Source of the DNA: Flavobacteriales bacterium
GTDB lineage: Bacteria > Bacteroidota > Bacteroidia > Flavobacteriales_D > Sanyastnellaceae
Length of the DNA stretch: 64,000 nt
Direction of reading: 5' to 3'
Assembly: GCA_049610985.1 (NCBI GenBank)
Contig: JBMZAB010000005.1
Span: 12,587 to 76,586 of the forward strand
Position numbers and translations under genes: made by a program. Below are positions 9,676 through 27,180 of the stretch, in pieces (the stretch's first letter is position 1; every line of letters begins with the position of its first letter). Below the pieces are notes generated by a model that worked only from the letters and a program-made list of their open reading frames with translations, had not been told where the DNA came from and did no database searches.

Positions 9676-9981
9676 TCAGAGGGAGAAAATGCCTGGAATC
9701 TTGGACGCGGCCTCGTAGCGGGCAAAGATGTCGTCAGGCCCCGTCACCTTCTCGTCCACCGTCACAGCGCGGTAGTTCCCCTTGGAAGATTCCCGCACTT
9801 GGAACGCGGCCTTGGTGCCAAAAATGGCGCGAAGCGACGCCTCGTTCTCAGGCTTGGCCGGCACAATGAACTTGAACTTGAACACACACGGCCAGGTGTG
9901 GGTGTCGTTCAATTGTTGACGCAGCTGTTCGCGTTTTTCGTCGTCTTGAGGGGTCATATTTCCAGGAACTTGGGGGGACAA
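9676..9981 (-). CDS. DUF493/YbeD-like small protein
   Basis: WPCVFKFKFIV... and ...SSKGNYRAVTV... match the YbeD-family pattern. An alternative ATG lies at 9957. Confidence 0.7.
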   Translation of the reverse strand: MSPQVPGNMTPQDDEKREQLRQQLNDTHTWPCVFKFKFIVPAKPENEASLRAIFGTKAAFQVRESSKGNYRAVTVDEKVTGPDDIFARYEAASKIPGIFSL

Positions 9982-10014
9982 AAATAAGAACGGGCCGCCC
10001 GAAGGCGACCCGTT
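9976..10014 (-). terminator. rho-independent terminator of the 10044-11216 gene
   Basis: Minus-strand transcript AACGGGUCGCC-UUCG-GGCGGCCCGUU forms an 11-bp stem (one G.U) with a UUCG tetraloop, followed by CUUAUUUUUG. It starts 29 nt after the stop codon. Confidence 0.6.
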
Positions 10015-10082
10015 GACGTCCTAGGGTTTGTTGGGCAGAGCTGTCAACATGGTTGGCCAAAAGCCGCCAAGAATTGCAACAA
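9989..10082. repeat. 94-nt perfect direct repeat, copy A (last 12 codons + stop + hairpin of the 10044-11216 gene)
   Basis: Hand alignment gives 9989-10082 identical to 26951-27044, with a constant offset of 16,962 nt. Confidence 0.9.
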
Positions 10083-11216: not shown

Positions 11217-11266
11217 ATGAAGGATTCGGAGAATAACTTACACAAAACCAAGCAAAAAACCAAGCG

Positions 11267-12889
11267 TCATTTCATGCCCTCTTTTCTCTCTAAGGCTTTG
11301 CGAGGCTCGCTGTACACCCTCTGGATGACCGTGTCTGTCATCAACTTCATGTCCTCAAGGGATTGATCGTCGCCAAACTCCACCTGCAACGCCTTCAGCT
11401 CCGACTTCAACCTCTGCACGAGTGTATCCGGTGCACTGGCATACATGTTGTTCAATTCATACGGATCGTCGTCAAGGTTGTACAATTCCCATTCGTCCAT
11501 GGAGTAGTAAAAGTGCATCAACTTGTAGGGACCCGATTTGATGCCGTAATGCGGTTGCACCTTGTGCCAAATGGGGTATTCGTAGTAATGGTAATAGACC
11601 GCCGTCCGCCCAGGCTCATCATCGTTGTCAAAAGCCGATTTGAAACTTTTCCCCTGCATGGTTGAAGGCACTTCCAACCCCGCCATGTCCAACAGCGTGG
11701 GACCGAAATCGATGTTCATGGCCATGTGGTCAGACACGGTTCCAGGTTCAATCACCCCGGGGCACTGAACCACGAATGGCATTTTGAACGACTCTTCGTA
11801 CATCCATCGTTTGTCGAACCAGCCATGCTCGCCCAGGTAGAAGCCTTGGTCTGAAGTGTACACCACAAGGGTGTTCTCATCGAGGCCAGTTTCTTCCAAA
11901 TGGTCCAACACGCGTCCCACGGCGCGGTCCACACCCGCCACGCAACGCAGATAGTCTTTGATGTACGTCTGGTATTTCCAATGTTTCAAATCCTCTCCCT
12001 GCAATGAATCGTGGGGCGTCCAGAATTGTCCCTTGTCTCCGTAAGCGAGCCAGCGCATGGAATCACGGCGTGTCAACCCAGGCGGCGGCACTTGCTTCAT
12101 GTCCCTGCGGTTCAGGTGCTCCCCAATTTCCATCATGTTTTCCGCTGCCGCAGGGCGTCCTGCATAGTCGTCGTTGAACGACAATGGCGTGGGGAAATCA
12201 AAATCCGCAAACAACTCGTGGTACATCGAATCCGGGCGCCAATCCCTGTGCGGGGCTTTGAACTGGTAAAGCAACATGAATGGCTTGTTGGGATCGCGTT
12301 GCTCTGTCAACCACGCGATGCAATCGTCTTCAATGACCTGTGTGGAGTGCCTGGTGGTTTCCACCAACGTGTCCACCCCATTCACACAAAATTGTGGGTT
12401 GAAGTAAGTGCCTTGACCTCCCCAATTGATGAGCACCTTGGAGTGGTCAAAGCCCTCGGGCGTCGTACCCAAGTGCCACTTGCCGATGACAGCGGTTTCG
12501 TAACCGTTTTGTTGGAACACCTTCGGAAAGGTGAGCAAGTCCCCGTTGAAATCACCTCCATCCACATTTTTGTAGAAGCCATTCACGTGGCTGAATTGAC
12601 CCGTCAGAATCGACGATCGGCTGGGTCCGCAAATGCTGTTGGTGCAGTACACCTGGTCCATTCTTGCCCCGTTCTTGGCAATCCTGTCGATGTTGGGGGT
12701 CGGGGCAAGTTTTGAAATTTCAGAACCGTAGGCACTGATGGCTTGGTAGGCATGGTCGTCCGCCATGATGTAAATGACGTTGAGCGGCTTGTCTTTGTCA
12801 CCGCGTTGAGTAGTGGATTGGCAGGAAAGCATGCTCACGGCCAGCAAACACATCGCGAGGGTTGCGAGGGGGGGCTGAATTCTTGTCAT
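11267..12889 (-). CDS. sulfatase (Cys-type; N-acetylglucosamine-6-sulfatase/arylsulfatase-like, with DUF4976-like C-terminus)
   Basis: NVIYIMADDH..., sulfatase signature C-x-P-x-R in SICGPSRSSILTG, and a C-terminal LYNLDDDPYELNN. The ATG at 12889 gives the lipoprotein-like signal MTRIQPPLATLAMCLLAVSMLSC. The track extension to 13126 would overlap the upstream gene. Confidence 0.9.
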   Translation of the reverse strand: MTRIQPPLATLAMCLLAVSMLSCQSTTQRGDKDKPLNVIYIMADDHAYQAISAYGSEISKLAPTPNIDRIAKNGARMDQVYCTNSICGPSRSSILTGQFSHVNGFYKNVDGGDFNGDLLTFPKVFQQNGYETAVIGKWHLGTTPEGFDHSKVLINWGGQGTYFNPQFCVNGVDTLVETTRHSTQVIEDDCIAWLTEQRDPNKPFMLLYQFKAPHRDWRPDSMYHELFADFDFPTPLSFNDDYAGRPAAAENMMEIGEHLNRRDMKQVPPPGLTRRDSMRWLAYGDKGQFWTPHDSLQGEDLKHWKYQTYIKDYLRCVAGVDRAVGRVLDHLEETGLDENTLVVYTSDQGFYLGEHGWFDKRWMYEESFKMPFVVQCPGVIEPGTVSDHMAMNIDFGPTLLDMAGLEVPSTMQGKSFKSAFDNDDEPGRTAVYYHYYEYPIWHKVQPHYGIKSGPYKLMHFYYSMDEWELYNLDDDPYELNNMYASAPDTLVQRLKSELKALQVEFGDDQSLEDMKLMTDTVIQRVYSEPRKALERKEGMK

Positions 12890-12903
12890 GGAAAGAGAAT
12901 TTG

Positions 12904-14190
12904 TCAATTTTTTCGGGCAGACACGAGGAAGGGCAAATTGGCGGAAGAACATTGGTCCGTGGTGTTGCATGCCCTCACAAAAACACGGTAGGCCTCTGGC
13001 TGTTGAGGGGCGGTGAACTCGACGACTGAGCCTCGGGACACCTCGAAAGAGGCCGGGACTTCCTTCAGACTCGCTTGGCGGTCTCCGCCTGTTTTGGTCG
13101 AGGTCGACTCTGGGAACAAGGCGCACGTCCAGCGCACCTCGGCCCCGTGGCCCTCAACCTCCACCTCCAATTGCAGGAGCTCTCCAGGCTGAACCACATG
13201 GTCCTTCCGCCACCCCTGGCCTTTCAATTTCAGGTCCACAATGCCGGGCGACCGGGTCGCGGGCCATTCTCCTGTCCAGGCGCGGTGCATGGCATCCACA
13301 CCGTCGGTCGGCCGGCCATCGCTCAAAAAGAGTCCATGCCAGGTTGCTGTGGACTCTTGTTTTTGGCCCCACAAAAAACAATAGCTCCCCAAGCAACGTG
13401 CGCTGTCTGAGGCAATGATTTCTTCAAACCGCCTCAAACGGGTGGCTGCTTTGACCCCGCCAGGGGGCTCTTTCTTCGCACCCCATGCTGTCTTGGGTGC
13501 TTCAAATGGGCCGTTGACCCCCCACTCCGTGACGAGGTAGGGCTTGTCCCATCCAAATCGCCGAATGTTCAAGGGCAACTTTTCGATGCTCCCGTAAGCG
13601 TTGACCCCAAGCACATCCACACTGGGGCACTGGGTTCGGACCATGTAGATTTTGGCCGGATCGATGCCGGCGAGCACCGTGGAAGTGGGATGATCGGGAT
13701 CCACCTGGTGAATAAATTCGGCCAAGGCCTCCACGGAATCCCAAACCCGGGTGTTGGTGTATTGTAAGTCCACTTCATTTCCGATTCCCCAAAGGAGCAG
13801 CGCCGGGTGGTCCTTGTATTTCAGAACTTCTTGCTTGAGCTCGGCCAATTGACCTTCCACAGCGTGCACGTCGTTGTAATCCATGCCCGTGCGCTCAGGC
13901 CTTAAATACAAACCCAGCATGACCGACATCCCGCGGGCATGCGCAGAATCCAACAAGGCCGATTTGTTCGTGCTCCAAAGCCGGATGGAATTGGCTCCCG
14001 ACGATTGAAGCAACTCGAAGTTGGCTTTGGCTCCGGCGCCCAGTACAGGGTGGGTTTCGCCGTGACGCAACAAGGTCCATCCGGAGGAATCTTTCGAAAT
14101 CGTCACTTCAGGAACCTGCGCCCTTCCCACCGTCGAGGCGGTAAAGCACCACCACGCCAAAATCACGTATGCCGTCTTCTTCTGCCTCAT
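12904..14190 (-). CDS. clan GH-A glycoside hydrolase (TIM barrel + C-terminal beta-sandwich; GH2/GH158-like)
   Basis: Signal MRQKKTAYVILAWWCFTASTVGRAQ. Acid/base context LLLWGIGNEVD and nucleophile context PYLVTEWG. The start at 14190 forms an ATGA overlap with the upstream stop; an alternative start is at 14211. Confidence 0.75.
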   Translation of the reverse strand: MRQKKTAYVILAWWCFTASTVGRAQVPEVTISKDSSGWTLLRHGETHPVLGAGAKANFELLQSSGANSIRLWSTNKSALLDSAHARGMSVMLGLYLRPERTGMDYNDVHAVEGQLAELKQEVLKYKDHPALLLWGIGNEVDLQYTNTRVWDSVEALAEFIHQVDPDHPTSTVLAGIDPAKIYMVRTQCPSVDVLGVNAYGSIEKLPLNIRRFGWDKPYLVTEWGVNGPFEAPKTAWGAKKEPPGGVKAATRLRRFEEIIASDSARCLGSYCFLWGQKQESTATWHGLFLSDGRPTDGVDAMHRAWTGEWPATRSPGIVDLKLKGQGWRKDHVVQPGELLQLEVEVEGHGAEVRWTCALFPESTSTKTGGDRQASLKEVPASFEVSRGSVVEFTAPQQPEAYRVFVRACNTTDQCSSANLPFLVSARKN

Positions 14191-15380
14191 GGTTGTCGAC
14201 GTTGAAGCCAACGTTCCACCTTGTCCGGATGACCGCGATACGCTTCCCAGGCGAAGTCGTGAAGGGTGATGTCGGTGTCATCAGGCAGGATCACACGCAC
14301 CTCCCTGGTGCCCGCCCAATTGAATTCGTCATGCCGAGGCATGCTTTTGATGGGAAGCGCACAGGACCAAATGCCCTCCTCCAATTGCACACAATGTTGG
14401 GGGGTGAGCGTCGATTGAATCTGCCGCGGCTTGCCTGTGCCCGACCAGATGGACATGCCAAGAGGCACCCATCCCCCCTCCAAGCGAAATGTCAAAGCTG
14501 AGTGGGAATGCACCTCCGTCATGTCCAACATTTCCCATCCGTTCAGTGCCACGCCGAAGGCATTCCATTCCTTGTTCGTTCCGCCTTTGTCGTGCTTCAA
14601 CACCAAAAAGGAATTTCCTCGAGATTCCGACCAAAAGACCGAGGAGGACGACGCATTTTCTTGAATGCCCCACCACAATTTGGAACGGCCCAAGTCCAGC
14701 GGAAGAGCCCCGCACACGTCTTGAGACCTGGAGGACAGCTTCTCCCCTTGATGCTCGAATGGCACAATTCGAAGGCCGTCAAGATGTACGCACCCTTCGC
14801 GCTGAAACTCGATGCGCAGCTCTTTGATGTTTTCCAAATTCACCCCCCTCGATGCCGCACGAAACGCGGACAATGGAATGTGCGCCTTTCTCCATTGGTC
14901 GTCGAAGGTTTGCCCCTCCACGTCGAGCAAATTGATCTTGGAAGTGGCTTGTCGGCCTGCGTAATCGATCAAGGCGAAAAACATCGGGATTTTGGAAGCC
15001 GTGCCCCGTTCAAGTTTGATGTGACATTGAATGGCTGCAATCTTCTCCAAGGGCTTCAAGTTTTTGCCCATGTAATTGGCCCATGGGAACCCCACCCCCA
15101 GGTACCGACAGCTGTCCGTTTGAGACCACTCCACCCGCACGTGATCGGCCCCTTCTGCAGACCCTTCTCGGACGACATCCACCCGTTTGCAAGGATGGGA
15201 TTTGTGGCCAAACATGAGGGAGTTGGCTTCGTCCAAATAAATGTCCCTGTGGACGTAGTTTAACACCCGCTCTTCCGCCGTCGGACGCAAGTCCAAGTCG
15301 TACAATGGCATGTCTTGCATGGTGCCACATCCCAGCAGCAATCCGGCAACCAACCCCAAAGTCAACCGCATTCGCATCAT
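14187..15380 (-). CDS. lipoprotein with two CBM-like beta-sandwich regions (putative surface glycan-binding protein)
   Basis: Lipobox MMRMRLTLGLVAGLLLGC. Two segments resemble non-catalytic carbohydrate-binding modules (e.g. ...NIKELRIEFQREGCVHLDGLRIVPF). This rests on compositional and pattern inference only. Confidence 0.65.
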   Translation of the reverse strand: MMRMRLTLGLVAGLLLGCGTMQDMPLYDLDLRPTAEERVLNYVHRDIYLDEANSLMFGHKSHPCKRVDVVREGSAEGADHVRVEWSQTDSCRYLGVGFPWANYMGKNLKPLEKIAAIQCHIKLERGTASKIPMFFALIDYAGRQATSKINLLDVEGQTFDDQWRKAHIPLSAFRAASRGVNLENIKELRIEFQREGCVHLDGLRIVPFEHQGEKLSSRSQDVCGALPLDLGRSKLWWGIQENASSSSVFWSESRGNSFLVLKHDKGGTNKEWNAFGVALNGWEMLDMTEVHSHSALTFRLEGGWVPLGMSIWSGTGKPRQIQSTLTPQHCVQLEEGIWSCALPIKSMPRHDEFNWAGTREVRVILPDDTDITLHDFAWEAYRGHPDKVERWLQRRQP

Positions 15381-16411
15381 TCTTGCTCCAAAAGTGGGGC
15401 ACCTTCCGTGAACATGACGTAGTCCAAGTCGGCACGGGCTTCAATGTCTCCGTTCTCAGGACAATTTCCGCTGTTGAAGGGACAAGCCTGCAGTCCGAGA
15501 CGGATGCCTCGGATTTGGCTCGGTTCACGAACGTTGTTGCCCCCTTCACTTTTCACCTCGAACTCCGAATACGACACGGACACATACCGCCAACCCTCCC
15601 AATCCACCGGCCGAACTTGATGCTTGTACACTTCCATGCCCGTTGCAAAAATGTCCGCAGCATTGTTGGAGGTGTTGTCGTTGAATGGGGCGTCAGACTC
15701 AGAAAGCAAGATGTTGACGTATTGATCGGACGCAAATTCCCCGTTCAGCCCGCCAAGCACACCCAGATTCAGGAAGAACCCTTCGGCATCGGTCGTCACG
15801 GAGGTCAAATCAAGCGGAATGTCGATGTATCCGAGGCTCCAGTCCCAATTCACCCGTCCCCCCATTTTAAAGTACTGTCCCCCTTGGAGCGCTTCATCTT
15901 GGGCGAGGTCGAACGTCATGTTTCCACCGTCTTGGTGCCACACCAACGCCCCATTTGGCAATCCGTCGTCAAAATCCGCCACAGGCAACCCTTCGTACAC
16001 CTTTTCGCCTTGAATCACCAAGTCTTGCTGGAACACCTCAGGCTCCCCTTCCACTGTCAACTCAACCTCGCAGGATTCGACCAAGAAAAAGGGAACGTCA
16101 TCGCAGTTGCCGTGCCACACCACCTGTTCAGGCAGGAGTTCCCTTGAAAATCCAGACAAGGTTTTCACACTCCCTGATTCCGTCCCCACAACGCGGACTG
16201 TCCATTCGACGGGCTTGGAGAATTCGCACGCAAATCCAACAACGTCGCCCACCGAAAAGTCTGGGGTGTGGGTTGTCAGACTCAGTGAGTCCAGCACCTC
16301 AAACTGGCCAAACAGCTCGTCAAGGGATGGCCCCTCAGAATCCGGCCTGTCACACCCGATTGCCAAGAGACACATCAAGACTGAAGCCCACCACATTCTT
16401 GTCTTTCTCAT
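15377..16411 (-). CDS. lipoprotein, Ig-like + CBM-like region (putative surface glycan-binding protein)
   Basis: Lipobox MRKTRMWWASVLMCLLAIGC. 344 aa. ATGA overlaps with both neighbouring genes. Confidence 0.65.
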   Translation of the reverse strand: MRKTRMWWASVLMCLLAIGCDRPDSEGPSLDELFGQFEVLDSLSLTTHTPDFSVGDVVGFACEFSKPVEWTVRVVGTESGSVKTLSGFSRELLPEQVVWHGNCDDVPFFLVESCEVELTVEGEPEVFQQDLVIQGEKVYEGLPVADFDDGLPNGALVWHQDGGNMTFDLAQDEALQGGQYFKMGGRVNWDWSLGYIDIPLDLTSVTTDAEGFFLNLGVLGGLNGEFASDQYVNILLSESDAPFNDNTSNNAADIFATGMEVYKHQVRPVDWEGWRYVSVSYSEFEVKSEGGNNVREPSQIRGIRLGLQACPFNSGNCPENGDIEARADLDYVMFTEGAPLLEQE

Positions 16412-18129: not shown

Positions 18130-18130
18130 G

Positions 18131-20071
18131 TCAAAAAGTCAATTTCAATTCCACCATGGTTTCCGATCCTGCCAAGGCATTGAGTGAAAAATTAGGATCT
18201 CGGAAGGTATACCACTGATGCCGCACGTAAAGGTTGACGCCGTCACTCAGGGATAGATCCATCCCTGCTCCGAGCCTGCTCTGCGTTTGGTTGCGGGCAG
18301 AAGTCATGACTTCATGACGGCCACCACTGAGCCAACTCGTCCATGGATTGGCCACACTCGGAACGTCCGCATCCCCTGCCGCTGTCTCTCCGTTGCCCAC
18401 CACACGTTCGAACCCGAGGTGAATCAACCCCACACAACGCGGACTGAATTCCACACCCAAATCCAGTTGGCTGCTTTGCTGACGGAGCAACGACGCCGTG
18501 GGCCCATCAAATCCATCCCACCAACCGCGCTGAGCCGTGTTCATGCGATGAAGCCATGTCGCCATCCAGTCACGGCCTTTAAAGGTTCCTTTTCTTTTGA
18601 CTTGGACTTCCAAGGTGTTGAATCGCTTTTTGAATGCGGTGGCCTCGGTCGCGAGCGAATCAGACAATGACACCACTTCGAAAGTCCGGCGATACACGCT
18701 GTTTAGCGCATTGTAAGGCCCCCACGATTGGGAGAACAAGTTCAACCTGGACAGCGTCTCGCCGTTGACAATGTGGAAATACGAAACCCCACCAGACGTC
18801 GGCGTCAACTCCGAGGCCAGACCCATGCCCGTGTTGATTTGCCATGCTCCCACTGCCCCTTGCATTTGCACTTCCAAGCCTTGCCTGTTGTTCACCGGAG
18901 TGCCCAGCTGCACCATGGGCGATTCAAAAGGCGCGCGAACCGTGGCTCCTATCCCAGCCACATTGGGAAACACTTCCAGGACAGATGAATTCAAAAAATT
19001 TCCTGTGACGTTCACGAATTCCGGGGCAATTCTGTACGCCCGCAGCGACAATGGCACCTTGGCCTGGGATGTCGGGCGGATGTCCAGGAACACAGCCTCG
19101 CCTTGCTGCCATTCCATGTCCATGTCTTCTCTGTACTTTCCCCAACCACCTTCAAGCAAGACCACATGCTCCTTCCAAACCGCCTTTGTCTCTAGGGTGT
19201 GAAGGTGGTACACCCTGGCGTCCCCGTTCAACGTGTCGATGACGGCCTGAGACGTGAGGGTGTTGTACGCCAGGTTCATCTTCGACCCCAAAGACTTGGA
19301 CACGCGCCAACTTGACGCGAAGTTGGGCACACCGGATGCGATTGCACGGTTGAAGTTGCTCTTCCCCAAAACGCCTTTGACCTCAAGTTGACCAGGCAGG
19401 TCCTTCATCCCTAAAAAAATGCCTTGAAACGCACGGCTGCCGTAACGCAAACCCATGTCCACCAGGCCTTGCTCCACGTAACGGTTGTAACGCGCCCACG
19501 GCCTCCGTTCCACGGAGGTTTGCGGCCTTCGGTCGAACAAGCTCAGCCGGTTGAACGATTGGTTACCCCACACCGTCAATCGACTCTGACGGTACCACGT
19601 GACGCCCCCGGTTCGAAGCGTCACCTTGCCCCAGTTTCTTCGGATGTTCATTGAGGTGTTCAACCCGAGGTCCAACGTCAATGCGGAAGGGTCCACCTCT
19701 GGCCCTTTGAACAGCGAATTGCCCATGAAATCCACCCCAATCCTCACCCCTTCTTTCGTGGTGATCTTCAGGCGGGTCAAAAACATGGGCTCTCGATAGA
19801 GGTCGCCCACCAAAACCGCCATGGTCTTTCCGGAATTCCCTGGAAACACTTCATTTTGGTTTCTCACATACCCCAACACGCGACAGAACCCTGACGCCGA
19901 CACCCCATGCGCAGGCTGCCGAATGGACGGAGCGGAACTGCTCGTCCAACTTTGTGAATCCAACCCTTGGGCCAACATGGGGGCTGGCAAAAACAAGAGG
20001 GCAGTCCACAACGCGACCCTCAACGGGAGGCCTTCAAAATGAAAACAAGGATGGCGCAGGAGAGGAGACAC
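18131..20071 (-). CDS. predicted outer-membrane beta-barrel protein (unknown family)
   Basis: GTG start. Signal ...LRVALWTALLFLPAPMLAQG. 646 aa ending ...ETMVELKLTF, the terminal aromatic typical of BAM substrates. Confidence 0.6.
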   Translation of the reverse strand: MSPLLRHPCFHFEGLPLRVALWTALLFLPAPMLAQGLDSQSWTSSSAPSIRQPAHGVSASGFCRVLGYVRNQNEVFPGNSGKTMAVLVGDLYREPMFLTRLKITTKEGVRIGVDFMGNSLFKGPEVDPSALTLDLGLNTSMNIRRNWGKVTLRTGGVTWYRQSRLTVWGNQSFNRLSLFDRRPQTSVERRPWARYNRYVEQGLVDMGLRYGSRAFQGIFLGMKDLPGQLEVKGVLGKSNFNRAIASGVPNFASSWRVSKSLGSKMNLAYNTLTSQAVIDTLNGDARVYHLHTLETKAVWKEHVVLLEGGWGKYREDMDMEWQQGEAVFLDIRPTSQAKVPLSLRAYRIAPEFVNVTGNFLNSSVLEVFPNVAGIGATVRAPFESPMVQLGTPVNNRQGLEVQMQGAVGAWQINTGMGLASELTPTSGGVSYFHIVNGETLSRLNLFSQSWGPYNALNSVYRRTFEVVSLSDSLATEATAFKKRFNTLEVQVKRKGTFKGRDWMATWLHRMNTAQRGWWDGFDGPTASLLRQQSSQLDLGVEFSPRCVGLIHLGFERVVGNGETAAGDADVPSVANPWTSWLSGGRHEVMTSARNQTQSRLGAGMDLSLSDGVNLYVRHQWYTFRDPNFSLNALAGSETMVELKLTF

Positions 20072-20127
20072 GGCTCAACTTACTCCATATTGTTGAACGA
20101 CTGCGGCATGGGCCCGTCAAGAATGCG

Positions 20128-21153
20128 TCAATTCTGAGGTGCGAGGGGTACGGAATCTCGAACACACCGGAATCCGACATGGCTAGCGCCCGTGTCTTCT
20201 GCCACAGGCATTCGCGCAGTCACCCTGTAACTGGAGCAGTATCCAGGATGGCAGAGGAAAGAACCACCCCTCATGACGCGTTTGGGGACATGGTCTTCCA
20301 TGGGGTCAAACGAAACTCCCGGCCCCCTTGGATTCAAAACAACCTGACCGGAACGACTTGCATAAGTGTAAGGGTCGTACCGATCGCTGCACAATTCCCA
20401 CACGTTGCCTCCCAAGTCGTGGATTCCGAGGCTGTTTGCTGGGTACGACATGACTGGAGCCGTCTTGACGTGGCCATCCAATTTGGCGTTGGAGACTGGA
20501 AATTGCCCTTCCCAGATGTTGCATTTCACCTCACCCTGCCCTGGAGCTTCGTTGCCCCAAGGAAACCTGACTTGTTCCCCACGAGCGGTGGCTGCAAACT
20601 CCCACTCCGCTTCGGTGGGCAAGCGCGCCCCCCTCCATGTCGCATAAGCCACGGCGTCCTCCAACGCGATGTGCACCACAGGATGATCCAACACCTCTTG
20701 ATACGTTGAACCTGGGCCTTCAGGGCATTTCCAGCTGGCCGACTCTGTCCACTTCCACCACTGCCCAGGGTCCCTCAGACTGAAAATCGCCTCAGGAGAA
20801 AAGAACGTCATGGAACCAGGGTCGTGGGAACCTTGCGGGGTGTCAACTGGTCGCTCGGCCACGGTCACGTACCCCGTGCTTTCCACAAATTCTGCGAACT
20901 GGGCGTTGGTCACCTCATGACGGTCCATGTGAAAGCCATCAACCCTCACAAGGTGTCTTGGCTGTTCACGAGGCAACGCATCCGAATCCCCTGAATGCGC
21001 CCCCATTTGGAATGCTCCCCCTTCCACCCAAACCATGGACGCATGACCTGCTGCAGGCTGGGGAGATGCCAGCTTCTTCTCATGATTCTTCGCAGCTGGC
21101 TGACATCCCAAAACAACGACCAGCCCAAGAATGCTCCTCCAAGATGTATTCAT
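20128..21153 (-). CDS. formylglycine-generating enzyme (SUMF1/FGE family)
   Basis: MVWVEGGAFQMGA..., ...VTNAQFAEFV..., ...GGNVWELCSDRY... and ...RVMRGGSFLCHPGYCSSYRVTAR are canonical FGE-sulfatase domain blocks. The start overlaps the upstream stop by 1 nt (TGATG). Confidence 0.9.
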   Translation of the reverse strand: MNTSWRSILGLVVVLGCQPAAKNHEKKLASPQPAAGHASMVWVEGGAFQMGAHSGDSDALPREQPRHLVRVDGFHMDRHEVTNAQFAEFVESTGYVTVAERPVDTPQGSHDPGSMTFFSPEAIFSLRDPGQWWKWTESASWKCPEGPGSTYQEVLDHPVVHIALEDAVAYATWRGARLPTEAEWEFAATARGEQVRFPWGNEAPGQGEVKCNIWEGQFPVSNAKLDGHVKTAPVMSYPANSLGIHDLGGNVWELCSDRYDPYTYASRSGQVVLNPRGPGVSFDPMEDHVPKRVMRGGSFLCHPGYCSSYRVTARMPVAEDTGASHVGFRCVRDSVPLAPQN

Positions 21154-22565
21154 CAGTGCGTGGATTCAAAAGAGCGAAACGGGTCGTTTTTCCAGGTGAT
21201 CCCATCTTGCCACCGAGGCGCTTTCACTTGCTTCAGATAATCGAGCAAGTCCGACTCCATGTCGTGGGCAAGCTCCGGCAACTTGAGCGCGAGGTTTGTC
21301 GTCTCTTCCAAGTCCTTCTCCAAGTCAAACAACCGCACCTCGCCGTTGTCGTGGAACTTCAGCAGTTTGTAATGGCCAGAGATCCAAGCCGAGTGTGCAC
21401 GGTTGAGGGCGATTCGGTTTTGGTATGGCACATGAAAGGCCATGCCCCCATTCGGCCGCACCACATCCTTGGCTTGCACTCCTCGCAGCACGTGGACAAA
21501 ACTACCCCCATCCAAGCTGTCAGGCGCCTCACTCCACCCTCCCGCCAATTCAGCCACGGTGGGCAAGAGGTCCGCTCCCCAGACACAGGCTGACGTCGCC
21601 ACGTTCGCAGCAACACCAGGACCTGACACCACAAACGGCACCCTGAGCCCACCTTCCATGGCGTCCCATTTCCCCCTGCTCAAGGGCTCATTGAGGCTCT
21701 TCTCATAATGCTTGGCCCCAGGAATGTTTGGGACACCCCCGTTGTCGGACAGATAGATCATGTAGGTGTTGTCGTCCAACCCCAATTCATGAACCTTCGC
21801 CAAGAGTAGGCCTAGACTCGCATCCAAGTCCATGGTCATGCCGGCCATTCCTTGGTGACGGTGTCGCCGGCCGGGCTCCGTCCTTCCCACCTTGCCTAAA
21901 GAAGCTGGTGTTGTTTCAATGTTGGTGTGCACCGCATAATGGGAAATCTGTAGGAAAAACGGACGGGCCAAGGCATGACAAGAGTCCACGAATCTCATTG
22001 CACGGTCTGTCAACTCAAAGACACGCTTGGGGTCAGAAACCACCTCGGTCTCCCATTGACTTCTGTCGTTGACGAACCCGCCATCCACATTTTTCGTCGG
22101 TCCGTCGCTGACGTCGTACCCCACCTCCTCAGGGGTGCCACCCATGCCCCATTTTCCAAAATGTGCGGTCTGGTACGTTGAGTCGATGGTCTGAAGGGCC
22201 TTGGGCAAACTCACCCAGTCCCCGTGAGGAATGTGAGAGGTGTTCATCCCCACCCGAATCAACTGGATTCGGGCTGGAGATTTCCCGAATTGAATGCTGT
22301 AACGCGACGGGGCACACACGGGTGCCGACGCCCTCGCGTTGGAGAACCTCATCCCGCTTTGGGCCAACGAATCCAGCCACGGCGTCTGGTGAAAGTCACT
22401 TGCCGATTCTGGCAGCCCAGGAACCATTTCCACCGACGTCCCATTCCACGCCTGGTCGTCCACCAGCACGACGACAAAGTTTGGCGGGGCCTTCTGACAC
22501 GTGCGCTCATCCGAGGCACACGAGGCACAAAAAACCAAGCACAACATCCACACGTGCATCCTCAT
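21153..22565 (-). CDS. sulfatase (Cys-type, arylsulfatase A-like)
   Basis: Signal MRMHVWMLCLVFCASC, then NFVVVLVDDQ... and the C-x-P-x-R signature in APVCAPSRYSIQFG. Confidence 0.9.
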   Translation of the reverse strand: MRMHVWMLCLVFCASCASDERTCQKAPPNFVVVLVDDQAWNGTSVEMVPGLPESASDFHQTPWLDSLAQSGMRFSNARASAPVCAPSRYSIQFGKSPARIQLIRVGMNTSHIPHGDWVSLPKALQTIDSTYQTAHFGKWGMGGTPEEVGYDVSDGPTKNVDGGFVNDRSQWETEVVSDPKRVFELTDRAMRFVDSCHALARPFFLQISHYAVHTNIETTPASLGKVGRTEPGRRHRHQGMAGMTMDLDASLGLLLAKVHELGLDDNTYMIYLSDNGGVPNIPGAKHYEKSLNEPLSRGKWDAMEGGLRVPFVVSGPGVAANVATSACVWGADLLPTVAELAGGWSEAPDSLDGGSFVHVLRGVQAKDVVRPNGGMAFHVPYQNRIALNRAHSAWISGHYKLLKFHDNGEVRLFDLEKDLEETTNLALKLPELAHDMESDLLDYLKQVKAPRWQDGITWKNDPFRSFESTH

Positions 22566-24082
22566 GGCTCTGACGACTCCAGTGATGGGCGTTTCAGAAC
22601 CGGCGCCACGCGGGGCAAGGGCCTTGCCAAGGGGTTCACCAGGCCCACACCCGCCGGCACCACCTTGTGGGAAGAATCCATTTGAACCAACACCTGTTGA
22701 AGAGAGTCCAGAATCGGGCCCATGTCCAGTTGACCCGCCAAGTTGTCCAACTCAGAGGGATCTGCCTGATGGTCGTACAACTCCCATCCCAGCTCGCCTT
22801 CGTTTCCCCATCGAGTGATGCGGTGACGCGCTGTGCGAAGAGAGGATCCCTTCCTCCACTCCGTGTACGCACCCGGTGAAACTTGGTCTTCTGTCTCGCG
22901 GGGCTGCAGCACATTTCTGCCCGGAAGTTGTGCAGGAGGAACCAACCCAGCCCATGCGGCGACCGTGGGATAAAGGTCCACCAGTTCCACAGGTGCGAAT
23001 TCCGCGGCATGAGAATTCAATTCGTCTGGGTTTCTGAGGATGAAGGGCACCCTCGTTGCCTCTTCAAACAACGTTTGCTTCTGCCAATGGCCATGTTCTC
23101 CGAGGTGATAGCCATGGTCGCTCAAAAACACGACCAGCGTGTTGTCGTCAAGTCCCGTCTCTTTCAGCGCCCCGAGCACCCTGCCCACCTGTGCGTCCAC
23201 AAAGGACACGGACGCGCGATACGCCTGAATCACCATCTGCGCAGTGTCATGCGCCAAGTCCACTTGGACTCGGTTGCCCCGAATGGAGCGCTTGGACGGG
23301 GTGGGCAACGCCGACAAGGTTGAATCGGCGTAATCGGGAACCACCATGTCCCCCTTGGGATGCATGTCAAAAAAGGAAGAAGGCGCGACAAATGGCGTGT
23401 GGGGCCTGAAGAATCCCGCCGCCAAAAAGAAGGGTTGCTCGGTTTGCGCATGCGCACGGAGCTTCTCAATGGTCAACGAAGCCACCATCCCGTCGGTGTG
23501 CTCTTCCTCGTCTCCTTCGGAACTCAACCAACTCAAAGTCCCACCGAACTTTCCTTCGACCAGAGAGTGAATCAAGTGCTCCTCGCGCTTGTCTCGTCCT
23601 GATGGGTTGTACGTTTCATCCCACGACGGATTGTCGTCTTGGCCCGACGTGCCGATTTCTCCAGGGTTGTCGTAATGGAAAAGCTTGCCCACCCGGGTCA
23701 CGTGGTAACCGTGCTGCCGGAACAATTGAGGCAGGGTCACCACCTCGGGCATGGCGTCCCGAAGCATGACGCGATTCTCTCGAACGCCAGACTGAGAAGG
23801 GTAAAGTCCAGTCAGAAAACTTGTGCGAGACGGACCACAGAGCGGGTATTGACAATGGGCTTGGTCGAAGCGGATCCCTTCAGAGGCAAGCGCGTCGATA
23901 TTTGGGGTCGATGCCAAGGAATCTCCATAACATCCCAGCATGCAGTTCAAATCGTCCGCAACCAACAGCAGGACATTCCGTGTGGCATGGAGATGCTCCT
24001 TCTCACTGGGAGCGCATGAAACCATGAATCCCAACGCCACGACCGACAGCAACCTCCACGCCGATTGAGGAGCAAACCTCAC
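22562..24082 (-). CDS. sulfatase (Cys-type, iduronate-2-sulfatase-like)
   Basis: NVLLLVADDLN... and YPLCGPSRTSFLTG. The GTG at 24082 gives the lipoprotein-like signal VRFAPQSAWRLLSVVALGFMVSC, 10 nt after the upstream stop. The track start (24187; ATG at 24184) would overlap the upstream gene by about 90 nt. Confidence 0.85.
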   Translation of the reverse strand: MRFAPQSAWRLLSVVALGFMVSCAPSEKEHLHATRNVLLLVADDLNCMLGCYGDSLASTPNIDALASEGIRFDQAHCQYPLCGPSRTSFLTGLYPSQSGVRENRVMLRDAMPEVVTLPQLFRQHGYHVTRVGKLFHYDNPGEIGTSGQDDNPSWDETYNPSGRDKREEHLIHSLVEGKFGGTLSWLSSEGDEEEHTDGMVASLTIEKLRAHAQTEQPFFLAAGFFRPHTPFVAPSSFFDMHPKGDMVVPDYADSTLSALPTPSKRSIRGNRVQVDLAHDTAQMVIQAYRASVSFVDAQVGRVLGALKETGLDDNTLVVFLSDHGYHLGEHGHWQKQTLFEEATRVPFILRNPDELNSHAAEFAPVELVDLYPTVAAWAGLVPPAQLPGRNVLQPRETEDQVSPGAYTEWRKGSSLRTARHRITRWGNEGELGWELYDHQADPSELDNLAGQLDMGPILDSLQQVLVQMDSSHKVVPAGVGLVNPLARPLPRVAPVLKRPSLESSEP

Positions 24083-24092
24083 AATGCCTGGC

Positions 24093-25046
24093 TCAAGGAC
24101 GATGAACGATGAAGCGATGGACTTGGGTAATTCCTCCCAGGTGCGTCTCCAACAAATACGTGCCTGGCAACCATCCAGAAACATCAATGGCCGTGGAGGT
24201 CGACTGAGAATGTTCAGTCAAGCACACCTTGCCCTGGGCATCCAACACCCGAAATCGGCCAAGGGCTAGGCTGGACGTCACCCACAATTCCATGGATGCA
24301 GGGTTGGGCGCCATGCCGATGGACAAGGAGGACTGAGCGTCTTGCACGTCGTCCACTTCCCCGGCGCAAAGGCAATCGGCTGTGATCATGTCGTTGATTG
24401 TGTCGTCGTTTCCGTCATCGCACGAATCCCCCACCAAGACACACATGCCGTTGTCCACTTCTGCATAGGGCGCGTAGTTGCACGCCTCCGCATTGGTGCA
24501 ACCCACAGAATTGTAAACCACCATTTGTTTCCAGTAGATGGTGTCTCCATTTGCAACTCCCCATGGACCGCGCCAACCAAAGCGCCCCACTGTCCCTTCA
24601 AACGTGCCACTCCCACTGTTGGGGGGGCTTGTCAAATCCAAGGTGTACGTCTGGAATCCCTCCATCTCTGTGTCCACAGGAACATTCCAATGACACATGA
24701 ACGCGTTGGTTTCTGGTGCGTAGGCGAACAGACGCGCGTTGGGGTTGCCCGACGTGGTGGGGTTTCTCAACGTGATTTGAACGCGGTCGTACATGCCGGC
24801 GTCGATGCCCAAGCTTTCATTGACTGTGCCACTGCGCATGACCGGGGTCGTGTTGAATGCCCGCATGGCCATGGCCTCGGGCTGCTCAATGAGGTTGCAA
24901 CCGAGGTTGGACTCACTGGCGGGAACCCACCCTTCCTTGGAGTCTTGCCAATCGTAGACAATCTGCGCCGTGGCGCACGTCGGGGCAATCACAAACGACA
25001 ACAACAAACAGACGATGCAGGAGGAAATGCGCAAGGAGGTGGTCAT
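24093..25046 (-). CDS. T9SS C-terminal-sorting-domain protein with unknown N-terminal domain and one ACNY module
   Basis: Signal MTTSLRISSCIVCLLLSFVIAPTCATAQ and module GCTNAEACNYAPYAEVDNGMC. The last about 75 aa (24096-24320: ...MAPNPASMELWV...LDAQGKV...GTYLLE...) match the Por_Secre_tail pattern. Confidence 0.75.
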   Translation of the reverse strand: MTTSLRISSCIVCLLLSFVIAPTCATAQIVYDWQDSKEGWVPASESNLGCNLIEQPEAMAMRAFNTTPVMRSGTVNESLGIDAGMYDRVQITLRNPTTSGNPNARLFAYAPETNAFMCHWNVPVDTEMEGFQTYTLDLTSPPNSGSGTFEGTVGRFGWRGPWGVANGDTIYWKQMVVYNSVGCTNAEACNYAPYAEVDNGMCVLVGDSCDDGNDDTINDMITADCLCAGEVDDVQDAQSSLSIGMAPNPASMELWVTSSLALGRFRVLDAQGKVCLTEHSQSTSTAIDVSGWLPGTYLLETHLGGITQVHRFIVHRP

Positions 25047-25098
25047 AACTCTTTCAATGGATTGATTCACAGGCAACGTCCCAAGGTACATTAGAAGC

Positions 25099-26943: not shown

Positions 26944-26950
26944 ATGCGAA

Positions 26951-27044
26951 AACGGGCCGCCCGAAGGCGACCCGTTGACGTCCTAGGGTTTGTTGGGCAG
27001 AGCTGTCAACATGGTTGGCCAAAAGCCGCCAAGAATTGCAACAA
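26951..27044. repeat. 94-nt perfect direct repeat, copy B
   Basis: Identical to 9989-10082. It begins 8 nt after the stop of the 25099-26943 gene. Confidence 0.9.
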
Positions 27045-27056
27045 ATCCAGATTCAA
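27006..27056 (-). pseudogene. orphan 3' remnant of a dockerin-tail gene (LNLDLLQFLAAFGQPC*)
   Basis: The minus-strand frame is closed by an in-frame TGA at 27057-27059, so only 16 codons plus the stop remain. The last 12 codons and stop are nucleotide-identical to the end of the 10044-11216 gene. Confidence 0.6.
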
Positions 27057-27180
27057 TCAACCATGATTTATTCAAGCGGACTTGACCTCAATGGGCGAGC
27101 TGTCAAGTTGGCAGGACAGAGCAAGCATCTTCCGCCTGATGCTGCGCTCACCAGATTGAACGAAAGCCGTCGTCAACGCC

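Follow-up and report, generated by a model that had tools for sequence, protein, structure and literature searches.

How would a glycan be captured and carried into the cell when the enzymes for its breakdown are not organised around a SusC/SusD pair? The question is raised by a sulfatase and glycosidase operon of an uncultured, fairly GC-rich marine Flavobacteriales bacterium, analysed here within a 64-kb stretch of DNA (the window). The original prediction was of ten genes, including two large outer-membrane barrels and two lipoproteins in the SusC/D/E/F position, forming a different uptake architecture for a sulfated glycan. We conclude that the operon encodes a SusC/D-independent system for glycan capture and uptake; its transport mechanism and substrate we infer.

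Organisation of the operon

Ten co-directional genes (g1 to g10) occupy positions 11267 to 25046 of the minus strand. Listing of open reading frames, with refinement of starts, exactly reproduced the predicted spacing; no gap exceeds 56 nt and five of the nine junctions overlap (ATGA or TGATG). In gene order, the junctions measure 10, −4, −1, 56, 1, −4, −4, −4 and 14 nt. Pfam and NCBIfam searches identified a T9SS C-terminal domain, three sulfatases, a formylglycine-generating enzyme (FGE), a CBM30-like lipoprotein and a clan GH-A hydrolase among the products; two of the ten, the barrels barA and barB, match no family. All ten gene identities were as predicted. The operon has no inner-membrane transporter gene.

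The predicted extent needs amendment. An eleventh co-directional gene, g11 (10044–11216, minus strand), lies 50 nt downstream of g10. It is followed by an intrinsic terminator-like hairpin (9989–10014, minus strand) with an 11-bp stem, 8 GC pairs and a T-run. This is the strongest such site within 9800–27400, and the sole strong one on the minus strand. From 25046 to 10044 that strand carries just two weak 5-bp terminator-like sites (23225 and 10599). Thus, the unit probably extends past g10 and ends at the hairpin, at about 9990, with g11 the probable last gene. From the gene overlaps and the absence of internal terminators, we infer that the genes are co-transcribed.

Absence of SusC, SusD and local regulators

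A domain search of the scanned open reading frames of the window found no SusC, SusD, HTCS, ECF or anti-sigma domain. Hence, the predicted absence of a SusC/SusD pair and of an HTCS or ECF/anti-sigma regulator holds. The sole TonB-dependent receptor in the window (59795–62377) is 35 kb away and has no neighbouring SusD. Nor did SusC/D recur in the regions flanking 23 related loci.

The barrels and the lipoproteins

The products of g5 (barA; 18131–20071, minus strand) and g6 (barB; 16408–18129, minus strand) are homologues of CHU_1276 and CHU_1277 of Cytophaga hutchinsonii. For barA and CHU_1276, hhalign gave 99.9% (E 5e-34) and BLASTP 1e-31; for barB and CHU_1277, hhalign gave 100% (E 4e-73, 542 columns). 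The barB family comprises 606 representatives at 50% identity. AlphaFold2 modelled both proteins as barrels, as predicted, with ~22–24 strands in barA (pLDDT 65.5, pTM 0.67) and ~22 in barB (pLDDT 61, pTM 0.59); these models are of moderate confidence, with the most conserved segments at pLDDT <50. In both models the first strand begins ~10–20 residues past the signal peptide, which leaves no space for a ~150-aa plug. Searches for Plug, TonB_dep_Rec or CarboxypepD_reg at E<=0.1 gave no match in barA, barB, CHU_1276, CHU_1277 or the homologues from two distant loci (L084 and L086). Family profiles found no sequence relative of the barrels in the PDB at E<=10. With Foldseek, barA matched generic barrels only (TM<=0.45), and porins, LptD, ushers and AlgE scored as well as or above TonB-dependent transporters. 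The models thus describe barA and barB as large barrels without an N-terminal plug. The conserved segments with pLDDT <50 (residues 157–174, 203–214, 353–393 and 433–477 of barA; 117–160 and 322–390 of barB) could still accommodate an internal plug-like insert.

Neither lipoprotein proved to be SusD-like. The g7 product, lipA (15377–16411, minus strand; lipobox LLAIGC), is a homologue of CHU_1278 (hhalign 98.7%, E 4.6e-16, 331 columns), a bimodular beta-sandwich by its authors' description (PMC12016534). The g8 product, lipB (14187–15380, minus strand; lipobox LLLGC), has two CBM-like domains. Its first domain gave a PDB profile match to CBM11 (1V0A/6R3M) and its second half gave weak matches to CBM30 (2C24, 1WMX). 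All 24 lipB homologues tested match CBM30 (best 5.6e-15), and 20 of the 24 match Exop_C. By position lipB is the counterpart of CHU_1279; comparison of the two revealed no sequence similarity.

The operon resembles chu_1276–chu_1280 of Cytophaga hutchinsonii

The chu_1276–chu_1280 genes form an 'atypical PUL', in which CHU_1276 and CHU_1277 are outer-membrane proteins, CHU_1278 and CHU_1279 are SGBP-B-like and CHU_1280 is a GH9 endoglucanase. Cellulose use requires CHU_1276, CHU_1277, CHU_1279 and CHU_1280, CHU_1277 has been linked to cellooligosaccharide assimilation, and mutation of chu_1276 or chu_1279 impairs growth at low glucose (PMC12016534, PMC5553014). Both systems have the order barrel, barrel, lipoprotein, lipoprotein, glycoside hydrolase, and three of the four non-enzymatic proteins (barA, barB and lipA) are homologous. 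Both lack SusC/SusD and an adjacent regulator, and in both the hydrolase has a Sec signal, CHU_1280 being reported as periplasmic. Conversely, the hydrolase here is a GH158 beta-1,3-glucanase by prediction rather than a GH9 enzyme, lipB is CBM30-like and dissimilar in sequence to CHU_1279, and barA is ~100 N-terminal residues shorter than CHU_1276. Only the present unit includes three S1 sulfatases, an FGE, a T9SS protein and a repeat protein. The hosts also differ, a planktonic marine member of the Flavobacteriales here and a soil cellulolytic member of the Cytophagales there. As judged from sequence, the operon is of the chu_1276–chu_1280 type, so its architecture has a precedent.

In uncultured marine Flavobacteriales the successive steps of the order barA-barB-lipA-lipB-GH were kept in 69/69, 64/64, 63/63 and 58/58 of the loci that reach far enough, lipA following barB in all 64. 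These genomes share just 30–47% amino-acid identity, which argues that the arrangement is not due to chance. Most marine-clade loci have S1_7-, S1_16- and S1_11-like sulfatases and an FGE; the FGE gene is just upstream of barA, on the same strand, in 52 of 65 related loci. In this clade, the additional neighbour seen most often is GH3. Whereas the published range of chu_1276–chu_1280 is three closely related cellulolytic species, the barrel/lipoprotein family occurs in at least 76 marine species-level genomes and many other lineages.

Distant relatives place the four-gene module in the position of SusC/D within complete glycan loci. Locus L086 encodes GH16, an AraR/NUDIX-type regulator, GH158, an SSF symporter, barA, barB, lipA, lipB and GH3; L087 has GH16, barA, barB, lipA and a 7TMR-DISM sensor; L084 has PL14, LacI, barA, barB and two lipA-like genes. 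Relatives of the L086 type, without sulfatases, are typical laminarin loci. At another distant locus, L081, a gene for an Acyl_transf_3 O-acyltransferase adjoins the module.

Sulfatases, their maturation and the GH158 hydrolase

Three genes encode Cys-type S1 sulfatase lipoproteins, each with a CxPSR motif; subfamilies were assigned from the closest solved structures rather than from SulfAtlas. The g2 product (22562–24082, minus strand; PF00884, 175 bits; CGPSR, lipobox FMVSC) is S1_7-like, with 6HHM (1.7e-66) and the iduronate-2-sulfatase 5FQL (2e-51) its best solved relatives. We take 6HHM to be an S1_7 ulvan sulfatase. The g3 gene (21153–22565, minus strand), whose start overlaps the g2 stop (ATGA), encodes an S1_16-like enzyme (PF00884, 102 bits; CAPSR) closest to 9FO1, a 'k-carrageenan sulfatase S1_16' (4e-53). 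The g10 product (11267–12889, minus strand; PF00884 and SGSH_C, 196 bits; CGPSR) is S1_11-like, of the hexosamine/hexose 6-O-sulfatase type, and matches 9S03 (1e-131), the N-acetylglucosamine-6-sulfatase 5G2V (1e-130) and 7P24 (2e-123). The FGE is a lipoprotein encoded by g4 (20128–21153, minus strand; PF03781, 244 bits). Its motif RGGSFLCHPGYCSSYR carries a Cys pair, presumably the catalytic pair, and the enzyme is predicted to mature the three sulfatases.

The clan GH-A hydrolase, g9 (12904–14190, minus strand), matches the GH158 enzymes 9ORO, GH158(Pro) (1.3e-85), and 6PAL, BuGH158 (1.2e-48). It aligns with these beta-1,3-glucanases end to end, over a TIM barrel and an Ig-like domain. The acid/base (NE) and nucleophile (TE) align with Glu143 and Glu229 of GH158(Pro), and the tunnel-forming Arg and Asp with Arg104 and Asp382 (PMC13195107). 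Hence, g9 is a predicted beta-1,3-glucanase. Characterised GH158 enzymes act only on beta-1,3 or beta-1,3/1,4 glucans, with strict recognition at the −2/−1 subsites (PMC13195107). The genomic partners of g9 are sulfatases and CHU-type barrels rather than SusC/D, a difference from BuGH158 and GH158(Pro). As g9 has a Sec signal peptide but lacks a lipobox, the enzyme is probably periplasmic.

Accessory genes at the operon borders

The secreted g1 product (24093–25046, minus strand) carries a T9SS type A C-terminal sorting domain (TIGR04183, 30.6 bits, cutoff 23; PF18962, 27.3 bits) and an N-terminal domain of ~200 aa with no assigned function. Full-length matches in L006, L007 and L067 back its start at 25046. 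At the other end, the secreted g11 product contains two internal ~115-aa repeats and a Cys-rich linker, and has a dockerin-like motif at its C-terminus (10077–10118); it matches no Pfam family, and in most related loci its gene comes after that of the S1_11 sulfatase. The divergent gene g0 (25099–26943, plus strand; PF13229) encodes a GH136-like beta-helix protein, aligned with the lacto-N-biosidase 6KQS over residues 37–391 (3e-17), and its C-terminus bears the same dockerin-like motif as g11. In many relatives g0 adjoins the operon, and in several it is co-directional, after the S1_11 sulfatase. Probably, g1, g0 and g11 supply surface accessories for the operon's substrate.

A model for uptake and its alternatives

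We consider it probable that this is a polysaccharide-utilisation operon of the chu_1276–chu_1280 type, with a sulfated beta-1,3-glucan as its possible substrate. The lipoproteins would bind the glycan on the cell surface and the barrel pair would pass chains or oligosaccharides through the outer membrane without a TonB-gated plug. Periplasmic GH158 would then cleave the beta-1,3-linked glucan processively to disaccharides, and the three lipoprotein sulfatases, activated by the operon's FGE, would strip sulfate esters. A regulator and an inner-membrane transporter would be encoded outside the operon. The homology to chu_1276–chu_1280, the place of the module in distant glycan loci and the lack of recurrent SusC/D in related flanks support the different uptake architecture first proposed; barA, barB, lipA and lipB stand where SusC, SusD and SGBPs do in ordinary Bacteroidota loci. 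The SusC/D independence of that proposal stands, but the architecture is not unprecedented.

The barrels invite other readings. They could be highly divergent SusC-like, TonB-dependent transporters, with a plug too diverged for recognition. The ~22 strands are as in such transporters, SusC, BtuB, FpvA and other chains of this kind are among the weak Foldseek matches, the Cytophaga authors reported matches of this sort for their CHU_1276 model (PMC12016534), and conserved inserts within the sequence could occupy the lumen. This is nevertheless very unlikely, given the lack of plug-related and PDB sequence matches, the early first strand, the equal or higher rank of other barrels at TM<=0.45 and the lack of a SusD-like partner. 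It is less likely still, to the point of being highly improbable, that the module exports or modifies a cell-surface polysaccharide, with the hydrolase and sulfatases in processing roles like those of BcsZ, PslG and AlgL in exopolysaccharide operons. In its favour, the structural matches include AlgE and other polysaccharide secretins, and L081 has its O-acyltransferase; against this, neither the window nor related loci have a glycosyltransferase, synthase, flippase or Wza/Wzc gene within the operon or close to it. Moreover, the module's partners elsewhere are catabolic (GH16, GH3, PL14, the SSF symporter, LacI/AraR-type regulators), the Cytophaga mutants do not grow on cellulose (PMC12016534), and sulfatases take sulfate off where a biosynthetic locus would require sulfotransferases. 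A scaffold role, in which barA and barB anchor and organise surface lipoproteins and enzymes while the glycan or its products enter via other porins or transporters, is unlikely but deserves more weight. In both barrels, the longest of the conserved segments modelled at low confidence could serve as loops for protein contact, and the Cytophaga mutant phenotypes fit this role too. Two ~22-strand barrels exceed the needs of an anchor, however, and the low-glucose growth defect of the chu_1276 mutant is a permeation-type phenotype. Elsewhere the module sits in the place of transporter genes, beside an SSF symporter in L086, and a probably periplasmic GH158 means that its substrate must traverse the outer membrane.

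As to the substrate, fucoidan, carrageenan, ulvan and chondroitin were originally suggested; GH158 indicates a beta-1,3-glucan backbone instead. A 3-linked hexose has its free hydroxyls at O-2, O-4 and O-6. The closest characterised relatives of the three sulfatases act at O-2 (S1_7), O-4 (S1_16) and O-6 (S1_11), so a sulfated beta-1,3-glucan, or a close 3-linked glycan, would be the most economical substrate. The same architecture could instead serve a sulfated 3-linked Gal/GlcNAc glycan (type-1 LacNAc-like, keratan- or mucin-like) or another sulfated algal polymer, which would require this GH158 clade to act on something other than beta-1,3-glucan. In favour, g10 is nearest to GlcNAc-6-sulfatases and mucin-desulfating sulfatases, g3 resembles Gal-/GalNAc-directed sulfatases, g0 resembles a GH136 lacto-N-biosidase, which releases Gal-beta-1,3-GlcNAc, and natural sulfated beta-1,3-glucan or laminarin was not documented in the literature searched. 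We nonetheless think this somewhat unlikely; characterised GH158 enzymes are confined to beta-1,3 or beta-1,3/1,4 glucans (PMC13195107), g9 retains the catalytic and tunnel residues, and lipB has beta-glucan-type CBM30/CBM11-like domains. The frequent GH3 neighbour and the sulfatase-free laminarin loci (L086) point the same way. Hence, the substrate is possibly a sulfated beta-1,3-glucan.

Relation to other uptake systems

The favoured reading, of a chu_1276–chu_1280-type utilisation operon, shares the clustered logic of SusC/SusD PULs, such as marine laminarin PULs (GH16/GH17/GH30/GH3/GH158). Common to both are surface glycan-binding lipoproteins, outer-membrane passage, periplasmic exo- or processive enzymes and sulfatases; GH158, GH3 and S1 sulfatases also occur within SusC/D PULs. 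Unlike these, the operon has no TonB-dependent transporter, plug or SusD, no HTCS or ECF/anti-sigma regulator nearby, and two non-identical barrels in place of a single SusC. The TonB-independent channels LamB/ScrY, ChiP, CymA and AlgE, whose type is among the structural neighbours of barA and barB, are likewise plug-less and encoded beside the catabolic genes for one carbohydrate. However, they have 12–18 strands and 350–490 residues, act singly or as homotrimers, lack a CBM-lipoprotein pair, and show no sequence relationship to barA or barB (TM<=0.45).

PUL predictors keyed to susC/susD pairs would miss this locus. The Cytophaga chu_1276–chu_1280 system was already known, if poorly characterised; what is new is its marine, sulfatase-loaded form. 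Thus, an alternative to SusC/SusD of the CHU_1276–CHU_1278 type is widespread in the ocean.

Organisation of the gene array

The array runs on the minus strand from g1 to g10. The first gene, g1 (24093-25046), encodes a protein with a T9SS tail. It is followed by two S1 sulfatase genes, g2 (22562-24082) and g3 (21153-22565), and by the FGE gene g4 (20128-21153). Next are the genes for two outer-membrane barrels, barA (g5, 18131-20071) and barB (g6, 16408-18129), and two lipoproteins, lipA (g7, 15377-16411) and lipB (g8, 14187-15380). The array continues with a GH158 gene (g9, 12904-14190) and a third sulfatase gene (g10, 11267-12889). Start codons were refined by reference to signal peptides and to related loci whose proteins match over their whole length. 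From g1 to g10, successive junctions measure 10, -4, -1, 56, 1, -4, -4, -4 and 14 nt. The original prediction of ten minus-strand genes, with 5 of 9 junctions overlapping and a maximum gap of 56 nt, was re-derived from the ORFs and refined starts.

An eleventh minus-strand gene, g11 (10044-11216), lies 50 nt downstream of g10. The best terminator-like hairpin between 9.8 and 27.4 kb has an 11-bp stem and is found directly 3' of g11 (10014-9989). Within the gene array, the minus strand has two weak 5-bp terminator candidates and no others. This arrangement suggests that the transcription unit probably comprises eleven genes, and we infer from the sequence that g1-g11 are co-transcribed. With 9 copies for an expectation of 8.6, the Bacteroidota -7 promoter motif, TAnnTTTG, is uninformative; one copy is located upstream of g1 (25204-25211). 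A σ70 promoter scan is not relevant to Bacteroidota. Scans for Rfam families and tRNAs found nothing in the window.

In some Crocinitomicaceae and Cryomorphaceae genomes (loci L002/L010, L012, L019 and L048) FGE and barA are transcribed divergently, and neither upstream sulfatase gene is present at that position. Hence, the segment from barA to GH158 is able to be its own transcription unit. In the window, an internal promoter may be present inside the 56-nt gap between the FGE gene and barA. The GC content of positions 10001-34000, which include the operon and an adjoining giant gene, is 0.53-0.58, compared with 0.59-0.63 in the flanks. The flanks carry ArgRS, Ffh, RibD and NQR genes. Close relatives share the ArgRS flank and so any acquisition of the low-GC block would be older than that clade.

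Sulfatases, FGE and a GH158 enzyme

Pfam and NCBIfam identified Sulfatase domains in g2, g3 and g10, and an FGE-sulfatase domain in g4 (PF03781, 244 bits). The translations of all three sulfatases contain a Cys-type C-x-P-S-R maturation motif (CGPSR in g2, CAPSR in g3 and CGPSR in g10). The g4 translation carries RGGSFLCHPGYCSSYR, which contains the FGE cysteine pair (motif C-HPGY-C). Lipoboxes were found in g2, g3, g4, g7, g8 and g10, and ordinary signal peptides in g1, g5, g6 and g9. The nearest solved structures to g10 were 9S03, the GlcNAc-6-sulfatase 5G2V and a mucin-desulfating sulfatase (1e-131 to 2e-123). For g2 they were 6HHM and then iduronate-2-sulfatase. For g3 the nearest was an entry named 'k-carrageenan sulfatase S1_16'. 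The SulfAtlas subfamily labels S1_7 (g2), S1_16 (g3) and S1_11 (g10) are based solely on these nearest PDB entries.

For g9, Pfam returned a weak GH2_C TIM-barrel signal. The protein matches GH158 over its full length (9ORO, GH158(Pro), 1.3e-85, residues 26-423; 6PAL, 1.2e-48). In the alignment, the GNE (acid/base) and TEW (nucleophile) motifs of g9 fall on Glu143 and Glu229 of GH158(Pro), and g9 also keeps the residues equivalent to Arg104 and Asp382. By homology, g9 has the clan GH-A TIM barrel, Ig-like domain and both catalytic Glu residues of a GH158 enzyme. GH158(Pro) is a processive β-1,3-glucanase that releases disaccharides, and this Arg and Asp close its active-site tunnel (PMC13195107). 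Its paper gives no genomic context (PMC13195107). In the marine-bloom papers covered here, GH158 is mentioned solely within SusC/D or gammaproteobacterial PULs.

The barrels and lipoproteins lack the hallmarks of SusC and SusD

A scan of essentially all ORFs in the window detected no SusD, HTCS, ECF, anti-sigma, LacI or AraC domain, in agreement with the original prediction that the operon has neither a SusC/SusD pair nor a regulator. The sole Plug-containing protein of the window (59795-62377) is encoded far from the operon and adjoins a DNA ligase gene. This ORF overlaps another (59178-59846) on the plus strand in a different frame; CarboxypepD_reg is present in each and Plug in the second. 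The pair, spanning 59178-62377, may be arranged in tandem, or may result from a frameshift or an assembly error in a TonB-dependent receptor gene.

The Plug model (PF07715) had no match at E<=0.1 in barA, barB, CHU_1276 or CHU_1277, or in the barA homologues of loci L086 and L084. Pfam and NCBIfam assigned no family to barA, barB or lipA, and thus detected neither a TonB_dep_Rec barrel nor a CarboxypepD_reg extension. SusD families had no match in 24 lipA homologues. SusC, SusD and Plug were absent from the 25 most frequent Pfam families among 59 flanking proteins at 23 loci. Family profiles of barA, barB and lipA had 0 matches to PDB sequences at E<=10.

AlphaFold2 models built from family alignments are β-barrels, for both barA (pLDDT 65.5, pTM 0.67) and barB (~22 strands, pLDDT 61, pTM 0.59). 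The first modelled strand begins at residue 57 of barA and residue 29 of barB, directly behind the signal peptides, which would leave no space for a plug of ~150 residues. The longest low-confidence stretches overlap highly conserved segments (157-174, 203-214, 353-393 and 433-477 in barA; 117-160 and 322-390 in barB). In these models, such segments may be lumenal or contact loops. Foldseek against the PDB matched both models to generic large barrels alone (MOMP, OccK, AlgE, LptD, ushers and MtrB) with TM<=0.45. Matches to SusC and BtuB had TM values of 0.29-0.36, no better than porins, LptD or ushers. Hence, no fold family could be assigned to barA or barB.

We checked whether the barrels could be divergent TonB-dependent transporters (TBDTs) with a plug, and the lipoproteins SusD-like; we found no Plug, no PDB sequence relatives and barrel-only models. 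With no plug, no specific match to TBDTs in sequence or fold, and no SusD fold, we conclude that the barrels and lipoproteins are very probably not SusC and SusD.

The two barrels were also compared with each other as possible paralogues. The hhalign probability was 5.8%, and a short G-x-P-x-N-R-x-G motif alone was common to both. It reads LG.PVNNRQG at residues 390-397 of barA and FGHATPNRRG at residues 386-394 of barB. In each protein the motif is behind a long conserved low-confidence insert, and it is kept in CHU_1276 and CHU_1277. The shared motif could be a trace of an ancient duplication, or a loop with a similar function in the two barrels. For lipA and lipB the hhalign probability was 6.8%, with a C-terminal strand motif alone in common. 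Pfam gave a near-threshold CBM30 signal for lipB. Among lipB homologues, CBM30 was found in 24/24 and Exop_C in 20/24; both are β-sandwich folds. The first domain of lipB is CBM30-like; in a PDB profile search it also had a weak CBM11 match, and the second domain had weak CBM30 matches.

Relationship to the Cytophaga hutchinsonii chu_1276-1280 cluster

A search seeded with a soil-type member of the barB family retrieved a protein named by NCBI 'CHU_1277 family cellulose-binding protein [Cytophaga hutchinsonii]'. The barA profile aligned with CHU_1276 (hhalign 99.9%, E 5e-34, 492 columns; single-sequence BLASTP 9.8e-32), the barB profile with CHU_1277 (100%, E 4e-73, 542 columns; 1e-48) and the lipA profile with CHU_1278 (98.7%, E 4.6e-16, 331 columns; 4.7e-12). 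In the window too, the CHU_1277-family gene immediately follows the CHU_1276-family gene, with a gap of 1 nt. CHU_1276 and CHU_1277 likewise lack any Pfam domain, Plug included, and NCBIfam release 20 has no model matching CHU_1277 itself.

The chu_1276-chu_1280 genes are co-oriented and co-induced by cellulose (PMC12016534, PMC5553014, PMC6247017). An ECF sigma factor controls chu_1276 (PMC12016534, PMC5553014, PMC6247017). CHU_1276 and CHU_1277 are outer-membrane proteins needed for cellulose use, and CHU_1277 is tied to cellooligosaccharide assimilation (PMC12016534, PMC5553014). CHU_1279 is an essential cellulose-binding SGBP-B-like protein, the presence of which counts more than binding; it has two CBM-like domains, the C-terminal one being described as CBM11-like (PMC12016534). 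CHU_1280 is a GH9 endoglucanase reported to be periplasmic (PMC6247017). The authors speak of an 'atypical PUL', which they also report from two other cellulolytic species that are close relatives (PMC12016534).

No sequence similarity was detected between CHU_1279 and lipB (hhalign 0.7%) or lipA (0.2%). However, lipB and CHU_1279 occupy the same position, have similar lengths (397 and 375 aa), and lipB, like CHU_1279, probably contains two CBM-like β-sandwich domains. The hydrolase closing the cluster is GH158 in the window, where it has an ATGA overlap with lipB, and GH9 in C. hutchinsonii. The window locus differs from the Cytophaga system in its hydrolase family, its fourth protein and an added sulfatase/FGE set; its host belongs to another order of Bacteroidota and lives in another habitat. 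The portion of the chu_1276/chu_1277 literature covered here concerns C. hutchinsonii alone and describes no marine or other versions. We conclude that the window locus belongs to the known, barely understood Cytophaga atypical-PUL kind and is not categorically new.

Distribution and gene order in relatives

Clustering at 90% identity splits the barA family into at least 595 groups; the named sources are all marine Flavobacteriales/Crocinitomicaceae MAGs or Tara samples. The barB family is highly diverse: it counts 606 representatives at 50% identity and divides into over 30 subgroups. Scanning one genome per GTDB species, we found 76 loci. All are from MAGs or SAGs of uncultured marine Flavobacteriales, except for two evidently mis-binned contigs. 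These are L005 (CAZKGY010000014.1) and L077 (CAJXDE010000089.1), filed under Comamonadaceae and Halieaceae MAGs, and the labels are probably binning errors in public records. The operon is conserved in at least 76 species-level genomes of planktonic Flavobacteriales, among them Crocinitomicaceae, Cryomorphaceae, MED-G17 and MED-G20, and it also occurs in Tara samples.

Synteny was counted by tblastn of the window proteins, with loci extending far enough as denominators. The genes for barB (69/69), lipA (64/64), lipB (63/63) and GH158 (58/58) were always present. The downstream S1_11-like sulfatase was found at 35/40 loci, and the upstream sulfatases g3 and g2 at 54/60 and 49/54. FGE was upstream on the same strand at 52/65 loci; at several of the remainder it was upstream yet on the opposite strand. 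Amino-acid identity is merely 30-47% in most loci, which argues that gene order is under selection.

GH3 ranked first in the Pfam census of the 59 other flanking proteins from 23 loci. GH3 is a β-glucosidase family and, as the commonest extra neighbour in part of the marine clade, supports a β-glucoside substrate. ORFs of GH3 size are located just downstream of GH158 in L024 (17034-19325), L030 (17069-19324) and L048 (19058-21367). In L024 and L030 the putative GH3 ORF precedes the S1_11 sulfatase, and an extra opposite-strand sulfatase is often present in such loci.

Distant members of the barB family have other gene neighbourhoods. L086 encodes GH16 (T9SS), an AraR/NUDIX-type regulator, GH158, an SSF symporter, barA, barB, lipA, lipB and GH3. 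Its GH158 is 40% identical to g9 and its lipB contains CBM30 and CBM9. L086 thereby has the full gene set of a laminarin-type locus, in which the four-gene module takes the SusC/D position. L087 encodes GH16, barA, barB, lipA and a 7TMR-DISM sensor. L084 encodes PL14, LacI, a T9SS β-helix protein, barA, barB, two lipA-like proteins and further T9SS enzymes. L081 encodes a GH158-like protein, Acyl_transf_3, barA, barB and lipA. In L081/L083 (1086-2249) the Acyl_transf_3 membrane O-acyltransferase and a 182-aa protein are encoded between the GH158-like gene and barA, which is odd for a catabolic locus.

Secreted proteins at the operon edges

The T9SS type A sorting domain of g1 scored 30.6 bits with TIGR04183 (cutoff 23) and 27.3 bits with PF18962 (cutoff 27). 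The divergent plus-strand neighbour g0 (25099-26943), a β-helix protein, is predicted to be GH136-like (6KQS, phmmer 3e-17, residues 37-391). Both g0 (26869-26910, plus strand) and g11 (10077-10118, minus strand) end with a Cys-flanked, dockerin/EF-hand-like motif, CP(E/A)DLDGDG(T/S)VS..DLL..L......C, directly before the stop codon. The motif occurs nowhere else in a six-frame translation of the window. It could serve as a C-terminal tag for anchoring or sorting, different from the T9SS CTD.

In several relatives (L024 2393-4700, L030, L032, L036, L053 and L070) the g11-type repeat domain is within a GH136-like β-helix gene or fused to a g1-type T9SS tail. Hence, the repeat behaves as a mobile module. 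It may be a CBM that recognises the substrate of the operon. The minus-strand gene at 27281-34420 encodes a secreted protein of 2379 aa that contains F5/8 type C (CBM32-like) domains, three stretches of DUF285 and, at its C-terminus, a Fib_succ_major domain. Fragments of this protein adjoin the operon in L001, L006 and L008, and a role as a surface adhesin tied to operon function is possible.

Proposed function and alternatives

Three of the four module proteins are homologous to the Cytophaga system, and the hallmarks of TBDTs and SusD are absent. GH158 linkage is invariant in the marine clade; catabolic enzymes, symporters and regulators are linked elsewhere. The catalytic motifs of GH158, the sulfatases and FGE are intact. 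In the mechanism we propose, lipA and lipB would capture the glycan and the barA/barB pair would give it TonB-independent passage. GH158 would then act in the periplasm, as g9 has a Sec signal, no lipobox and no T9SS tail. The co-encoded FGE would mature the three sulfatases, which would remove sulfate groups.

In a 3-linked hexose, only C2, C4 and C6 carry free hydroxyls. The nearest characterised relatives of g2, g3 and g10 are active at O-2, O-4 and O-6 respectively. Matching three hydroxyls to three sulfatase affinities, the simplest substrate would be a sulfated β-1,3-glucan, and this is our working hypothesis. In the literature on natural sulfated laminarin covered here, no such polymer was reported and the top matches mainly concerned chemically sulfated material.

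We tentatively propose, as a possible rather than a probable reading, that the CHU_1276/CHU_1277 barrel pair and CBM lipoproteins form a second phylum-wide, TonB-independent glycan importer of Bacteroidota. The importer would be payload-modular (GH9; GH158/GH16/GH3; PL14; sulfatases and FGE), and PUL prediction that relies on susC/susD would not see it. Its target in abundant uncultured marine Flavobacteriales would be a chemically undescribed sulfated β-1,3-glucan, with one sulfatase each for O-2, O-4 and O-6. The same architecture could serve a Gal- or GlcNAc-containing 3-linked glycan instead, to which the GH136-like g0 and the GlcNAc-6-sulfatase affinity of g10 both point. We consider this somewhat unlikely, and it is compatible with the main architectural conclusion.

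Other alternatives concern the barrels themselves. That they act as a scaffold fits some Cytophaga phenotypes and is, in our judgement, unlikely. A cryptic TBDT is very improbable: a strand count of ~22 is the single trait the barrels have in common with SusC-like transporters. AlgE-like structural matches and one Acyl_transf_3 neighbour would suit polysaccharide export. However, the contexts are catabolic and the Cytophaga genetics are against export, which we therefore reject as the least credible of these possibilities.

Implications

Marine glycan surveys locate PULs by means of susC/susD pairs, an approach that systematically overlooks this operon and its relatives. The chu_1276-1280 cluster had been reported from only three cellulolytic species, all close relatives. 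It now looks like one representative of a large and diverse family, which counts 606 clusters at 50% identity for barB alone and is linked to varied enzymes and substrates. The module would be a widespread, payload-swapping alternative to SusC/D that SusC/D-based PUL prediction overlooks. GH158 is strictly linked to three regio-distinct sulfatases, from which we predict a sulfated β-1,3-linked marine glycan that chemists could seek. The family also provides comparative leverage on an old question: how chains of cellulose, or other glycans, cross the outer membrane without SusC. The laminarin-type loci (GH16/GH158/GH3/SSF) are soluble-substrate versions of the system and should be easier to study than those for crystalline cellulose.
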